Shown piece by piece: positions 39,612-54,361 of a stretch of DNA of 64,000 nt. The DNA is from an uncultured Chitinophagales bacterium (GTDB lineage Bacteria; Bacteroidota; Bacteroidia; Chitinophagales; JAHDHT01): assembly GCA_938023075.1 (NCBI GenBank), contig CALHDG010000130.1, forward strand, positions 1,195-65,194, read 5' to 3'. Within the stretch, counting starts at the first letter, position 1; each line of letters starts with the position of its first letter. Both the position numbers and the translations under genes were made by a program. The notes beneath the pieces are model-generated. The model saw only the letters and a list, made by a program, of their open reading frames with translations, did no database searches and was not told where the DNA came from.

Positions 39612-40097
39612 ATGCAAATAAATCAAGCCAATCTTATCCATTTATACAAAAATGATGAAGTAGTATGTTTACCTTTTGAAAAAAATGAGTTATTAAATAA
39701 TAAGCACTCCAATTATAAGATAAAAGCTATAGGCAACAACCAAAAAAAGATATTAATTATGGTTAGCCATTCAATAAATGATTTAAATTCGGAAGAAAAT
39801 GTATTATTGTTTAACATTTTAAAGGCTATTCATTTAACAATTGAAGATGTTAAATTAGTAGAATTTGCAGGACAACCGTTTAAGTTTATAAAAAACTCAA
39901 TTGAATTTGAAAAGTGTATCCTTTTGGGCTTAGATGGCAGTCAAATTGGTTTGCAAATGGCTTTAAATCCATATCATATATTTAATTTTATGAATACTTT
40001 TTTTTTAACAAGTCATAGTGCCAATTTGTTAAATAAACATAAAAAATATAAAGAGAATTTGTGGAAAGCTTTACAAAAAATGTTTGCGGTAACTTAA
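39612..40097 (+). CDS. Conserved hypothetical protein (possible DNA polymerase III psi-like)
   Basis: GNNQKKILI, LLFNILKAI, KENLWKALQKMF; upstream of rdgB. Confidence 0.55.
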   Translation: MQINQANLIHLYKNDEVVCLPFEKNELLNNKHSNYKIKAIGNNQKKILIMVSHSINDLNSEENVLLFNILKAIHLTIEDVKLVEFAGQPFKFIKNSIEFEKCILLGLDGSQIGLQMALNPYHIFNFMNTFFLTSHSANLLNKHKKYKENLWKALQKMFAVT

Positions 40098-47718: not shown

Positions 47719-47833
47719 TCTTTTCATAAAAAGAACATAAATCATTAATGTTGAACTTTTGAATAAAAATGATATATTTACCTTTAATTAAATGTATAAA
47801 TTCAAATATTTATTAATGATTTAACTATAACAA

Positions 47834-48496
47834 ATGAAAAATATTAAAATTGAAGATTCATTTAGGAAAGTCATTCCTACTGTGAGACTTGGTGTAATGC
47901 AAGGCAAAGTTATTTTCGAGAAAAAAAATGAAGACTTATGGTTAGAAATAAACAACTACACAAACAGCCTTTTCCTAGAAATGACTAAAGAAGAAATTAA
48001 ATTAATTCCAAGAATTAGTGACTCAAGATTGGCTTATAAAAAACTTGGTAAAAAGTCAAGTGATGGATATGACATTTCATCAGAGGCACTTTTAAAAAGA
48101 GTATTTTCAGGCAAAAATCTATTCAATATTAATAACATTGTTGATACATCTCAACTTCTTTCAATAATGAGCAGGCTATCAATAGGAATATACGATTTAG
48201 ACAAAATTGAAGGCGATATAACATTTAAAATTGGTAGTAATGAAGACACCTATAAATCATTAGGTAAAGGAATGCTAAAGTCAGAGAAATTGCCGATTCT
48301 CGTCGACCAAACCGGAGGATTCGGTAGTCCCACCTCAGATTCTGTAAGAACTTGTATTAGTGAAAATACTAAAAGAGTAATTATGATTATGATGGTATTT
48401 TCTGTAATAAATTTGGATAATATACTTACTATTAGCAAAAATTACTATAAGCGATACGCAAATTTATTGGAAGGACAAATAGACATAATCCAATGA
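47834..48496 (+). CDS. Stand-alone B3/B4 (PheRS beta editing-like) domain protein
   Basis: AYKKLG, SSEALLKRV, INNIVD, SIGIYDLDKIEG, LPILVDQTGGFGSPTSDSVRT. Confidence 0.85.
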   Translation: MKNIKIEDSFRKVIPTVRLGVMQGKVIFEKKNEDLWLEINNYTNSLFLEMTKEEIKLIPRISDSRLAYKKLGKKSSDGYDISSEALLKRVFSGKNLFNINNIVDTSQLLSIMSRLSIGIYDLDKIEGDITFKIGSNEDTYKSLGKGMLKSEKLPILVDQTGGFGSPTSDSVRTCISENTKRVIMIMMVFSVINLDNILTISKNYYKRYANLLEGQIDIIQ

Positions 48497-50151
48497 CGAC
48501 ATTTAATGAAAAGAATGATTTGAAAATCTTACTGTCCCAAAGCTTAACTGCAACAGTTATAAAACTTGGGTCTATTACAAACAACACTAATTTTTATAAA
48601 GAATATAAATTCCTTCAAAAAGAATTTGTAAATCTCGAGTTAGAACTAATAAAAGAAAAAATTGATAGAGAGTCTTATGAAAATTTTTTTGATAATTTAA
48701 GAATTAAAGTGTTAGATTTAATTGAAAAGCTTCCAATTGGAATTTTAAGATCAAATTTATATTTGAATGAAGTTGGATTAGATGATATAAAAAGAAAGTT
48801 TGAAAACAATTTGGTAGAACTTGGGTTGCTAAGCAATATTAAATTATATGGAAAAGACCTTGCATTAGAAAGCTATATAAATGGTATAAAAAAATGCAAT
48901 AAAAGATTTCTCACTACAAGTTTTTTAGATTCCAATTTCTGGTATGACGAAAATTGGAATATAGTTCATGAGAATAATCAACTTCAGACAAGAATATCAA
49001 ATTCAAAAGACCCAGAGAGCGGTCTGTATAGATTGTTTATAATTCCTGAAAGCATTTCATCATACATTAGTAAACGAGTTGATTTTGCCTTATCTCAAGA
49101 AAAAGTTGGTAATGAAAAACCTTTAAAGCGAATTATGGATAGTAAGGAAAATCTGTCAAATTTTGTTGATAAAATAGAAATGAAAATTATTGAGGAGAAT
49201 GAAATTCCAAAAAGCTTTAGAGATTTACATGGTTTAATTGGAAAAAGAGAATTAGCATTGTATGATGATTTTCGTTTTGACCAATTCAATCTAAATGAGA
49301 ATAGACAAATTGAAGATATTGAAATATGTACGAAATTTGACGAAAAATTTTATACAAAAAAAGAACATTTTAATAAAAATTTCAAAAAAGTTTGGGAATC
49401 GGCATCAGCAGTATCTGTTAAGGAATATATAAAAATGATTAACGAAGAAATTGCAGAGCAAAAAACAGAAAAGATTGATTATGAATCAAATTGGTTGTTA
49501 AAATATGATGCTTATGTTGCCAATGACAATCATATACTAACTTCTGAAATAGGATCTGTAACTTCATATTTGGAAGTATATTTAAAAGCATATTGTAATG
49601 GGAAGCCATTTAAGAACTACTTAGACATAGGAGTCTGCACAGGAAGATACCCTATTGCATTAAGAAATGGAAAATTAGTGAAAAATATTTTAACTGTCGA
49701 CTCCGATTCAGATGTTGAAATATTTATGAATACCTATCGAAAAGATATTCCTTTTATTAGACACGACATTAGACATAGTGATATACGTAATATGATAAAA
49801 AAGAAGTTTGACCTGATTACATGTATGCTTGGAACAATCTGTCATTTTGGATTAAATATAAAAAAAGATAAATATGCAAATAAAACAGGGCTTGAAAAAG
49901 CTTTAATAAATATCGATCATCTTTTAAATATAGATGGTCTTTTAATTATTTCGTCTTGGCAAGACTGGGATGTTTTAAAGAATGGCAAGTTAAAACTATA
50001 TTCTGATAACCAAATTTCAATTTTAAAGGAAAACAATCCCAGTCAAGAAAAGCTTAAAAAAATTTTAGATAATGGAAATAGTATGTATAGTTTCATTGAC
50101 AAACTATATGATCCATTTTTTGATATTTATGTAATAAAAAAAATTAAATAG
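48493..50151 (+). CDS. EAD-like + DUF6879-like + class I SAM-dependent methyltransferase fusion
   Basis: C-terminal motif I YLDIGVCTGR, VDSD, HDIR, KFDLITCM, LNIDGLLII. N-terminal ~80-aa helical EAD11-like segment. Middle YRLFII...ELALYDD...FKKVWE. Confidence 0.7.
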   Translation: MTTFNEKNDLKILLSQSLTATVIKLGSITNNTNFYKEYKFLQKEFVNLELELIKEKIDRESYENFFDNLRIKVLDLIEKLPIGILRSNLYLNEVGLDDIKRKFENNLVELGLLSNIKLYGKDLALESYINGIKKCNKRFLTTSFLDSNFWYDENWNIVHENNQLQTRISNSKDPESGLYRLFIIPESISSYISKRVDFALSQEKVGNEKPLKRIMDSKENLSNFVDKIEMKIIEENEIPKSFRDLHGLIGKRELALYDDFRFDQFNLNENRQIEDIEICTKFDEKFYTKKEHFNKNFKKVWESASAVSVKEYIKMINEEIAEQKTEKIDYESNWLLKYDAYVANDNHILTSEIGSVTSYLEVYLKAYCNGKPFKNYLDIGVCTGRYPIALRNGKLVKNILTVDSDSDVEIFMNTYRKDIPFIRHDIRHSDIRNMIKKKFDLITCMLGTICHFGLNIKKDKYANKTGLEKALINIDHLLNIDGLLIISSWQDWDVLKNGKLKLYSDNQISILKENNPSQEKLKKILDNGNSMYSFIDKLYDPFFDIYVIKKIK

Positions 50152-52060: not shown

Positions 52061-52246
52061 ATGAGTGAGGAATTACAAGAATTACAAAAAGAACTCTGGA
52101 GAACCTATCAGATTGTGAAAAGTATTAATGCGGTAGCAGAAACCCGTGCTTTGGAAGAAGAAGAAAAGGATAAACTTCATTTTTTAATTAAGCAAATACG
52201 ATCGATACAAGCTGAGATTAAAGAAGAGAAAGCGAAATTAAATTAA
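52061..52246 (+). CDS. Small coiled-coil hypothetical protein
   Basis: 61 aa with helical heptad pattern; TAATTTTG -7 element at 52041-52048. Confidence 0.55.
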   Translation: MSEELQELQKELWRTYQIVKSINAVAETRALEEEEKDKLHFLIKQIRSIQAEIKEEKAKLN

Positions 52247-52774
52247 TACACGGGGTCTTACTTTAAATAATTCTTCTAAATCAGGCGGTACTCCACCTAA
52301 AAAGTCGGTAAAATCGTCAAAATTATCTCTTGTTTTTTTAGAGATGAGATCTTGCATGTTTTCAATGATTTGCGTTGATACACAAACAGGCGGCATGCTT
52401 GAACTTATTTTATTACCCCTAAAATAGGCGATTATATTACAGCTTTCATAACTAATATAAGGTTGTTTTTGGCTTAATGCTTTTTTAATATTCTCAATAT
52501 TTAAATCTAAGTATTTGTCAATTACCTGAAAACCTTTGTTCATTTCGCCTTGCTGAAAATTTTGCATTTTTTCCATTGATTCTTCGGAAATTTCTTTGTA
52601 TAACTGCTCAATACAATATTGACAAATGGCAAATTCGTGCAGCACATCATTTGGTATACAAACCTTTTCAACCAAGTATTCAATAGAACTATCTAACAAA
52701 AAACGGTCGCATTTTGAGCAATTGGAAAAAGGTAAATCTTTAACTGTATTATAAAAAACGGGGGGAATATCCAT
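52238..52774 (-). CDS. Hypothetical protein with two CxxC motifs
   Basis: CSKC, YLVEK, FAICQYC, SKKTRDNFDDF. Confidence 0.65.
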   Translation of the reverse strand: MDIPPVFYNTVKDLPFSNCSKCDRFLLDSSIEYLVEKVCIPNDVLHEFAICQYCIEQLYKEISEESMEKMQNFQQGEMNKGFQVIDKYLDLNIENIKKALSQKQPYISYESCNIIAYFRGNKISSSMPPVCVSTQIIENMQDLISKKTRDNFDDFTDFLGGVPPDLEELFKVRPRVLI

Positions 52775-52849: not shown

Positions 52850-53069
52850 ACTTAAGTTTCGGTAGTAAAATAATTGCTGTTCCAATGGAACCTGTTCCAT
52901 TGTGTTAACAAAAGCATGGCAACTTTACTACAACAAGTGAACAGGTTCACTTGGATGATTTTATGCTTTATATGTTGAATTATTCTTTAACCTTATTGTG
53001 TACTTCAATTTCCGTAAATAATTTATATTCAAGTTACTATTAAATAAATTCTACTACCGAAACTTAAGT
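52850..53069 (-). mobile_element. ~220-bp MITE, family A copy 3 (inverted)
   Basis: Same TIRs; interior is the reverse complement of copies 1 and 2; its last base coincides with the stop codon of 53069..54361. Confidence 0.88.
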
Positions 53070-54361
53070 TAATTACAACTATTCTCTATTGGTTCAGTTA
53101 CAATTTCTTCAATTACTTCATCTACAATTTCGGCAGAGAAATTGGCACTTTTTTTTACATCAAAACCATTAGTTAAAGTGATGGCATTAACGGCTTTAAA
53201 AACCACCTTTGACGAGAAAAAGATAAAACTGTTCGATTCAATTTCGAAATTGGAATTAAATGTTTTTGTACCGGTTATAGTTCGATTATTAATATATTGT
53301 ACCTCAGGGTCGGGTGGTATTACTTCGGTATTACAGTCTTTGTAAATTTCATCAGCTGAATTGCAATTGGGTCCATTATTTACAATTTCGTGGTTTATTC
53401 TATCCTCAATAACATTGCAAACCATCGTGTTATTGCATATAGTTAATGCAGGATTATCTATAATTATTAATTTCCACAAAGGAAAATGATTGACATTTTT
53501 AAAGCCCTTTATCGAGTTAAGTTGTTCATTCGATTCTAGCCTTAAAAACTTCCCAATTTTTTTTAGATTGAACAAACCATCTACATTTTTAAGCCGTTTG
53601 TTTTCTATTATAGAAAAAGTTACGCTAACCAATTCTAAACTATTTAATCCACAAGCATTAGAAAGTTTATTATTATAGTTGATACTTACACTGCCGTTAG
53701 ATGTTTTTAGTTGATTTAATCCATCTAAATTTTCCATAGCATCATTATGGCTAACTTCTAAACTACCCACTTCTTTTAAGTTATCTAAGCCAATCAAATT
53801 TATCATATTGTTATTATAACGAATATTTACGGAGCCTTCTACAATTTGAAGATTGTCTAATCCTATACAATTTTGTAAACGCCTATTTTCATTAATGAAC
53901 AATTTGCCGGTTAAGGAAGTTATTTTTTCTAATCCTTCAAAATTTCTAAATGAGGGGTTAATATCTACTTTTAAACCACCAATTTTTCGAAGACTTTTTA
54001 ATGCTTTAAAGTTTTCAATTTTTTCATTTTTAAAAAGAAATAATTCTCCACCTATGGCTTCCAAATTTTCTAAACCTTTTAGTTCTACTAATTCGTTGCA
54101 ATTTCTAATTTGTAAATTGCCACCCACCGATTTAATGTTTGAAAAAGGACTTAAATTAGTTACGAAACTTTCAATAACCACATTACCTTCTATACGGGTA
54201 CAATTAGGATTATCTGCTTTAAACTGATTTAATTCACCTTGAGACCTAAAAAAATGATTGCCTTGTAAACAACTCTGAGCACCTACATTACTTATGCCAA
54301 TAAATAATATAATAAAAGACAATATCAGTGTGTGTTTTAGCTTTCCACTTGACTTTTGCAA
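53069..54361 (-). CDS. Secreted receptor-L-domain/LRR protein with C-terminal coathanger-stack-like domain
   Basis: Repeated L.GL.NL..V.G.L.I..N units; FKAVNAITLTNGFDVKKSANFSAEI. Confidence 0.8.
   Translation of the reverse strand: MQKSSGKLKHTLILSFIILFIGISNVGAQSCLQGNHFFRSQGELNQFKADNPNCTRIEGNVVIESFVTNLSPFSNIKSVGGNLQIRNCNELVELKGLENLEAIGGELFLFKNEKIENFKALKSLRKIGGLKVDINPSFRNFEGLEKITSLTGKLFINENRRLQNCIGLDNLQIVEGSVNIRYNNNMINLIGLDNLKEVGSLEVSHNDAMENLDGLNQLKTSNGSVSINYNNKLSNACGLNSLELVSVTFSIIENKRLKNVDGLFNLKKIGKFLRLESNEQLNSIKGFKNVNHFPLWKLIIIDNPALTICNNTMVCNVIEDRINHEIVNNGPNCNSADEIYKDCNTEVIPPDPEVQYINNRTITGTKTFNSNFEIESNSFIFFSSKVVFKAVNAITLTNGFDVKKSANFSAEIVDEVIEEIVTEPIENSCN

Follow-up and report, generated by a model that had tools for sequence, protein, structure and literature searches.

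We analysed a stretch of 64,000 nucleotides, hereafter the window, from an uncultured Chitinophagales bacterium (GenBank assembly GCA_938023075.1, contig CALHDG010000130.1), in which a sequence-only reading had picked out two adjoining genes as a candidate new system. Gene 1 (47834 to 48496, plus strand) is an open reading frame (ORF) of 220 amino acids (aa) encoding a stand-alone B3/4 domain protein, a divergent member of the CtdA-like type, and gene 2 (48493 to 50151, plus strand) encodes a three-part protein of 552 aa from a rare family that joins a phospholipase D (PLD)-like domain to a methyltransferase. Both ORFs were found where they had been placed, and all peptides quoted in that reading are present in the translations. 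The stop codon of gene 1 is shared with the start codon of gene 2, as had been described, in an ATGA overlap (48493 to 48496, plus strand; ...ccaATGAcg...), implying that the two genes are co-translated, and the 115-bp intergenic region upstream of gene 1 (47719 to 47833, plus strand) likely carries the pair's own promoter. On the two sides, Pfam domains identified pbpC, a gene for a class A penicillin-binding protein (Transgly, Transpeptidase, and BiPBP_C), and a fadD-like gene for an AMP-binding acyl-CoA ligase-like protein, in agreement with the flanks named before.

The lower GC content that had been noticed for the pair was confirmed, with 0.300 for gene 1 and 0.265 for gene 2 compared to 0.366 for pbpC, 0.365 for the fadD-like gene, and 0.337 for the window. 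Among the 46 window ORFs, however, gene 2 ranks third lowest and gene 1 eighth, so that both are AT-rich without being unique outliers. Both genes are also sporadic. Of 40 close relatives, one was found to have gene 1 and none to have gene 2; across the phylum, 5 of 400 other genomes hold the gene 1 subfamily at E < 1e-70. The fadD-like gene is kept in 12 of 12 relatives, and pbpC stands beside it in none of the nine relatives' loci checked, so that a clean empty site could not be shown. Apart from chance matches in AT-rich sequence, neither direct nor inverted repeats were seen in the flanks of the pair. A look for sequencing runs gave no RNA data, only three DNA runs of a single marine metagenome study, one of which may be the source of the window.

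The assignment of gene 1 to a stand-alone B3/4 domain proved correct. The protein scored 53.6 bits against Pfam B3_4 (cut-off 29.3; E = 2.7e-14), and a profile of its family, built on 25 relatives, matched the solved structures of CtdA (PDB 9f7e; E = 5.9e-18) and of the stand-alone B3/4 protein 9mkl (8.1e-15), followed by the beta chains of phenylalanyl-tRNA synthetase (PheRS; from 1.7e-5). The matches to B3_4, CtdA, and 9mkl place gene 1 with the stand-alone B3/4 proteins. CtdA is a canavanyl-tRNA(Arg) deacylase and, like gene 1, a single-domain B3/4 protein of about 220 to 230 aa; the glycine G116 of CtdA is also kept, as G118. In contrast, gene 1 and its subfamily have GSPTSDS in the segment corresponding to that around C166 of CtdA, the CtdA specificity residues are not kept, and gene 1, unlike CtdA, overlaps a gene for a PLD-like methyltransferase protein. 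The asparagine that positions the catalytic water (N105 in CtdA, N254 in PheRS) is replaced by a glutamine, Q107, although it is present in 31 of 31 other aligned sequences, including the B3/4 proteins of two loci discussed below (L009 and L125) and five Bacteroidota orthologues. Gene 1 further reads KKSSDGYD where the other aligned sequences read KDPxRYR. Judged from these residues, gene 1 is not a CtdA orthologue and is an odd, divergent member of its own subfamily. To our knowledge, it has no link to canavanine. The effect of losing the asparagine differs between the characterized proteins, CtdA N105A being inactive and the matching PheRS N254A retaining most activity, according to PMC12449066.

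We then turned to gene 2, for which three parts had been proposed: a helical head, a middle region of the DUF6879/PLD-like type, and a methyltransferase. Sequence searches with gene 2 gave only sub-threshold methyltransferase matches (E = 0.008), Methyltransf_11 scoring 17.3 bits against a Pfam cut-off of 21.2. An AlphaFold2 model built on 51 relatives reached a mean predicted local distance difference test (pLDDT) score of 84.9, and its C-terminal part (aa 333 to 552; 49489 to 50148, plus strand) was recognized by Foldseek as a class I S-adenosylmethionine (SAM)-dependent methyltransferase, the top matches being the peptide N-methyltransferase BamL, NodS, glycine/sarcosine N-methyltransferases (GSMT), and GNMT, with E about 1e-8. 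The same call was obtained in the relatives, 43 of 51 of which matched Pfam methyltransferase models at E ≤ 0.001, and the C-terminal methyltransferase of the original proposal is thus well founded. Across the family, D378, D403, and T443 are invariant and D425 is kept in at least 90% of the sequences; C444, M445, G447, T448, and H451 are likewise invariant or nearly so. The conservation of D378, D403, D425, and the further residues indicates that SAM binding is most likely intact. One specific type was tried and rejected: FtsJ matches were found in the EAD11 branch of the family, but no invariant lysine is available for the K-D-K-E tetrad of an RrmJ/FtsJ-type 2'-O-methyltransferase.

The middle part of gene 2 (aa 110 to 332; 48820 to 49488, plus strand) was modelled alone with a pLDDT of 91.8 and adopts a PLD-like fold. 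Foldseek matched it to TrmBL2, NucT, vaccinia F13, FAM83, TrmB, phosphatidylserine synthase (PSS), and Nuc (E = 5e-5 to 4e-3; TMq 0.40 to 0.47) and further to PLD3/4 and Zucchini, with 35 matches at E ≤ 0.001. Twelve residues of this domain are invariant in the family (Y128, T142, S147, F149, W150, N161, R180, E253, D258, R261, D263, and W301). No histidine or lysine is invariant in the 42 to 76 sequences compared, and the HKD motif is therefore missing; a polar set consisting of N161, R180, E253, D258, R261, and D263 is conserved instead. An active PLD nuclease was ruled out on this ground. Inactive PLD-like domains, such as the C-terminal domain of TrmB/TrmBL2 and DUF1669 of FAM83, offer a parallel in that they share the fold and also lack HKD, although no sequence relation was detected and the gene 2 domain differs from them in being fused to a methyltransferase.

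While the PLD-like fold was thus borne out, membership in DUF6879 was not. DUF6879 (PF21806) gave no Pfam match in gene 2 at E ≤ 1, and one relative (P0003) reached 13.4 bits against a cut-off of 23.9. With hhalign, the comparison yielded E about 0.01 and a probability below 4%, over 24 to 55 columns, and a HMMER search with the PLD-like domain profile retrieved only its own family and no DUF6879. Three short motifs do resemble DUF6879 by eye, in the same order, and for the middle part the protein Atlas pointed, with a value of 0.87, to a cluster with DUF6879 in 12% of its members, which is to be read as a lead only.

The N-terminal head (aa 1 to 85; 48493 to 48747, plus strand) was modelled as three helices (aa 6 to 29, 32 to 53, and 59 to 79) at low confidence, with a pLDDT of about 50 to 67. 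It had been compared to the effector-associated domain (EAD) EAD11, and this label is plausible without being established by gene 2 itself: EAD11 (PF19964) gave no Pfam match at E ≤ 1, its score of 12.7 bits lies below the cut-off of 26, and hhalign returned E = 0.015 with a probability of 3%. Shuffled sequences often scored as high as the head, namely, 322 of 1,000 with a profile from the window genome, 58 of 1,000 with one from the sisters only, and 5 of 1,000 when the sisters, L001 and P0002, were added to the own-genome profile. The protein Atlas gave nothing for the head. On the other hand, EAD11 is significant at the same position in the two closest relatives, P0002 (1.6e-9) and L001 (3.7e-8). 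We conclude that the head is probably a worn EAD11, possibly serving as a degenerate adaptor.

The genome from which the window derives encodes eight ORFs above the EAD11 cut-off. These include two TIR_2-EAD11 proteins (L059:994-1749, plus strand, and L060:1489-2256, minus strand), one of which is encoded beside an FRG-domain gene and the other beside an HNH gene. Two EAD11 proteins of this genome contain a hydrophobic stretch, as seen by eye. At L063:918-1502 (plus strand), a TIR_2 ORF precedes an EAD11 match that lies in a different frame, possibly due to a frameshift or an assembly error. At L058:2199-2844 (minus strand), two small overlapping ORFs adjoin an EAD11 gene and look by eye like a nucleotidyltransferase and HEPN (DUF86) pair.

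The coupling of proteins through EADs is a principle described for conflict systems (Kaur, Burroughs, Iyer, and Aravind 2020; PMC7159879), and the gene 2 protein resembles such systems in several respects. It has a small helical terminal domain where its relatives carry effector domains, its closest relatives have a significant EAD11, and TIR-EAD11 proteins are encoded in the same genome. It differs from them in that no STAND, vWA-MoxR, or GTPase core lies near the window pair and in that its own EAD11 is not significant. Moreover, the constant core in this case is a PLD-like domain joined to a methyltransferase, a combination not found in PMC7159879, the main text of which contains the word "methyltransferase" 0 times.

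The gene 2 family is rare. Searching 1.84 billion cluster representatives with a profile of the PLD-like domain retrieved 128 proteins at E ≤ 1e-3, of which 125 were also obtained at 1e-10. Eighty-six of the 128 are complete; 10 of these are almost headless, and 76 carry a head of at least 90 aa. According to Pfam, the heads of the 76 are CAP12-PCTIR_TIR in 51 proteins, Metallophos in seven, TIR_2 in two, DUF4062 in two, Pkinase in one, and EAD11 in one; the remaining heads, that of the window protein among them, have no Pfam assignment. The same picture was seen in an earlier set of 51 family proteins, 30 of which have CAP12-PCTIR_TIR. The single Pkinase head matched its model at 5.3e-44. Conflict systems are typically marked by immune-type heads exchanged on an unchanging core, in line with the EAD concept of PMC7159879. 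With its predominant head, the family resembles the TIR effectors of Pycsar and CBASS (Pfam CAP12-PCTIR_TIR), but the family contains neither a cyclase nor a cyclic-nucleotide-binding domain, and the window protein lacks such a head.

A constant core with a varying head is at the same time the usual layout of sensor-effector proteins. Hence, it is conceivable that the SAM-binding and PLD-like domains modify nothing and instead sense the SAM level or the state of tRNA, for example in the course of a phage infection, and activate the head or a recruited TIR partner. In line with this, the inactive PLD-like domains of TrmB and TrmBL2, which are among the top fold matches of gene 2, are ligand sensors. 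Yet the residues for SAM binding and those of motif IV show complete or almost complete conservation within the family, which would be expected of a working enzyme, and the headless members found in the nonribosomal peptide synthetase (NRPS) operons described below have no output domain to switch on. We regard a pure sensor as improbable.

To see which genes accompany the core, we gathered 53 loci from species genomes and 59 from metagenomes, 88 of which hold the PLD-like core; after removal of five duplicates and incomplete cores and addition of the window, 74 loci were compared. The loci had been collected by two conserved motifs, close kin included, and neighbouring ORFs were stop-to-stop translations. 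A small tRNA_bind protein is encoded next to the core in 20 of the 74 loci (25 of the 88), placed upstream, downstream, convergently, or divergently, and mostly within a few bases of the core gene. By comparison, 46 unrelated control loci (167 kb) gave 0 tRNA_bind matches. The tRNA_bind partners are nearest to CsaA (1gd7; 1.7e-30), followed by YgjH, the C-terminal domain of methionyl-tRNA synthetase (MetRS), and Trbp111. The usual partner of the family is therefore tRNA_bind rather than B3/4, which favours a link to tRNA. Neither B3/4 nor tRNA_bind was found fused to the core in any of 145 family proteins.

A B3/4 domain adjoins the core in three of the 74 loci, namely, the window, L009, and L125. 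In L009, from a Caulobacteraceae genome, the B3/4 gene is convergent with the core gene at a distance of 17 bp, and the core has a TIR-like head. In L125, a metagenome contig, the upstream gene (L125:1506-4118, plus strand) encodes a MetRS with a C-terminal B3/4 domain (tRNA-synt_1g, 1.2e-150; Anticodon_3; B3/4, 1.8e-17) and ends 4 nucleotides before a core gene with a TIR-like head; Pfam reported no tRNA_bind domain in this MetRS, and an NRPS is encoded on the other strand. Bacterial MetRS often carries a C-terminal tRNA_bind domain. The possibility, raised together with the original proposal, that the two genes are never adjacent elsewhere thus does not hold, since homologues of both stand side by side in L009 and, with the B3/4 domain fused to MetRS, in L125.

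We next asked how the partners are distributed over the family tree, which was computed in a quick IQ-TREE run with support from the Shimodaira-Hasegawa-like approximate likelihood ratio test (SH-aLRT) only. The window protein is sister to that of L001, from a Saprospiraceae genome, with an SH-aLRT support of 98. The head of the L001 core is an EAD11, and the upstream position held by gene 1 in the window is taken in L001 by a tRNA_bind gene, 4 nucleotides from the core start; this pair is AT-rich as well (GC 0.332 compared to 0.426 for the whole L001 locus). Similarly, L009, with its B3/4 partner, is sister to L114, with a tRNA_bind partner (SH-aLRT 99). As the sisters differ in their partner in both cases, B3/4 and tRNA_bind were swapped at least twice. 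Gene 1 is only 24% identical to the B3/4 protein of L009 compared to 37% to a solitary one from Bacteroidota, indicating that B3/4 was recruited independently. Furthermore, the window genome and the L009 genome each hold a single copy of a B3/4 gene of the gene 1 type, which is the one adjoining the core gene, and four other Bacteroidota genomes holding the core have no such copy.

These observations bear on the possibility that the two genes are chance neighbours without a shared function, acquired together or in turn; gene 1 would then be a trans-editing factor of the ordinary accessory kind, and gene 2 an orphan methyltransferase. Such a view would be consistent with the small share of core loci having a B3/4 neighbour and with the gene 1 orthologues, which in five of five other Bacteroidota loci stand alone among mutually unrelated genes, none resembling gene 2. 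The partner swaps, the independent recruitment of B3/4, and its single copies beside the core all argue against it, as do the ATGA overlap and the common low GC of the window pair. Indeed, B3/4 occupies the exact slot of tRNA_bind in the sister locus, and its adjacency to the core arose independently at least twice more. A chance association is, in our view, distinctly improbable.

NRPS modules lie nearby in 14 of the 74 loci, mostly beside headless cores, and in five loci a GH3 amido synthetase gene is located upstream, giving the order GH3, tRNA_bind, core, a protein without known function, and NRPS. Loci of this kind come from several phyla (L012:3581-13224, and also L023, L030, L105, and L129) and consist of GH3, tRNA_bind, a headless PLD-like methyltransferase, a protein of 220 to 240 aa, and a multi-module NRPS.

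The NRPS and GH3 neighbours of the headless relatives keep alive a second reading that was offered with the original proposal, in which a methylated amino acid or an analogue is the product of the methyltransferase and the B3/4 protein provides self-resistance by removing this analogue from tRNA mischarged with it, in the way that CtdA acts on canavanine and BesG on the product of its pathway. The enzyme would act alone in the window and as part of NRPS/GH3 pathways elsewhere. This is in agreement with the top structural matches of the methyltransferase (BamL, NodS, the glycine/sarcosine N-methyltransferases, and GNMT), which act on small molecules or peptides, and with the CtdA-like type of gene 1, and the MetRS-B3/4 protein encoded beside a core and NRPS in L125 looks like a resistant or editing copy of the synthetase. 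Stand-alone deacylases are also known to mark pathways for non-canonical amino acids, as described for the AlaX family only in PMC13149037. The window pair resembles these BesG/AlaX clusters in that a stand-alone deacylase-type gene adjoins a gene for a possible analogue-making enzyme and in that relatives are NRPS-linked. It differs in that the deacylase is of the B3/4 and not the AlaX type, the "cluster" in the window is a single enzyme, and relatives have TIR-like heads. Indeed, TIR-like heads in 51 of 76 proteins, along with TIR, DUF4062, kinase, and EAD11 heads in others, would be odd for a tailoring enzyme. Moreover, no other biosynthetic, transport, or regulatory gene adjoins the pair in the window, the usual partner, tRNA_bind, is non-catalytic and cannot deacylate, and gene 1 has a glutamine in place of the asparagine whose replacement by alanine inactivates CtdA (PMC12449066). 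We consider a metabolite enzyme with self-resistance rather unlikely, while giving it serious weight.

The reading that we favour, tentatively and at a little less than an even chance, is that the pair forms a tRNA-linked module of the conflict type, either immune or toxin-like. Gene 1 and gene 2 would then constitute one operon whose products act jointly on tRNA. Gene 2 would be the working core: its PLD-like domain, having lost the HKD motif, would most likely bind a ligand or a nucleic-acid end, and its methyltransferase would most likely methylate, or sense through SAM, a substrate carried by tRNA, which may be the 3' end or the aminoacyl group. Gene 1, with a B3/4 domain built for the aminoacylated CCA end and in the slot filled by a CsaA/Trbp111-like tRNA_bind protein in relatives, would either present tRNA to the core or reverse the core's action. 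The head would be the output, provided in most relatives by a fused TIR-like, TIR, DUF4062, metallophosphatase, or kinase domain. The window protein has a short helical adaptor in this place, which is probably a worn EAD11 and through which TIR-EAD11 proteins from other loci of the genome could be recruited; such an arrangement would represent a split form of the TIR-like head fused in most relatives. The domain anatomy, the family, the varying heads, and the partner genes with their swaps are observed; for this module we infer three things, namely, tRNA as the substrate, EAD11 as the identity of the head, and a role in conflict.

Several observations weigh against this interpretation. As regards tRNA, it is the neighbouring genes only that suggest it as the putative substrate, and the nearest folds to the methyltransferase act on small molecules or peptides and not on RNA. 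Since the loci include close kin, the neighbour counts do not represent independent events, and no partner was seen in 42 of the 74 loci, many of which lie on short contigs. In addition, PDB entries of the CsaA type are named secretion chaperones as well as tRNA binders, so that the common partner need not bind tRNA, and the order of GH3, tRNA_bind, headless core, and NRPS looks, from its gene content, like a biosynthetic cluster. The gene 1 orthologues in other Bacteroidota live without any gene 2-like neighbour. As regards conflict, EAD11 is below the cut-off in the head of gene 2, and relatives of neither gene were found on viral contigs. The defence-island context that had been suspected was not found either: the pair is surrounded by housekeeping genes in the window, and PADLOC-DB 2.0 gave no significant match for gene 1 or gene 2 and 0 in 10 neighbours, the former being what the sequence-only reading had expected of a system without a name.

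A more specific version of the tRNA-linked module can also be drawn, although we think it quite unlikely. Here, the core would be a new tRNA-directed effector that methylates charged tRNA, on the amino group or the 3' end, and thereby stalls translation; the B3/4 or tRNA_bind partner would deliver the tRNA or reverse the block, and the variable head would add a second, immune-type output. The target could possibly be Met-tRNA, given the MetRS-B3/4 neighbour in L125 and the MetRS-like tRNA_bind partners. The GNAT toxins TacT, AtaT, and ItaT place acetyl groups on aminoacyl-tRNA, and peptidyl-tRNA hydrolase counteracts them. These toxins could serve as a working analogy, in which an enzyme blocks the amino group of charged tRNA and a hydrolase frees the tRNA; their folds and chemistry are different, and the charged-tRNA amino group as a target of the gene 2 protein would be suggested by this analogy alone. 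Such an effector would represent a translation-targeting immunity or toxin system without a described counterpart.

As to novelty, the proposal that a B3/4 protein combined with a head, a PLD-like domain, and a methyltransferase is undescribed stands: the pair matches no NCBIfam and no PADLOC model, and no description of it was found in the literature searched. In this limited collection of papers, covered without supplements, there was no paper naming DUF6879, none joining CsaA, TIR domains, and methyltransferases in defence, and no methyltransferase-deacylase toxin pair. The finding is real and the original domain calls are mostly right, and the pair belongs to a rare, undescribed family that genome comparison links strongly to tRNA-handling proteins. 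If the tRNA-linked module is real, it would constitute an undescribed modular family joining immune-type heads to a methyltransferase core that accompanies tRNA-handling proteins, would add methylation to the ways in which cells attack or monitor tRNA in conflict, and would mean that stand-alone B3/4 proteins do more than proofread against plant toxins. If instead the methyltransferase makes a metabolite, the family would mark a small set of NRPS/GH3 pathways and would extend deacylase-guided genome mining from AlaX to B3/4. The repeated exchange of B3/4 and tRNA_bind and the MetRS-B3/4 fusion offer concrete handles for experiments.

Ten further neighbours of the pair in the window are ordinary and include genes for Ham1, an extracytoplasmic function (ECF) sigma factor, an outer-membrane barrel, DapF, a protein with a type IX secretion system (T9SS) tail, a major facilitator superfamily (MFS) transporter, and QueG. 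The ORF with the lowest GC content of the window (0.249) is located at 39612 to 40097 (plus strand) and encodes 161 aa without a Pfam or PADLOC match. A cysteine-rich ORF of 178 aa without a Pfam match (52238 to 52774, minus strand) is overlapped at its end by an ORF for a charged helical protein of 61 aa (52061 to 52246, plus strand). Finally, the ORF at 53069 to 54361 (minus strand) encodes a protein of 430 aa with an N-terminal signal-like sequence and Receptor L domain repeats (7.3e-13), a domain family better known from animal receptors.

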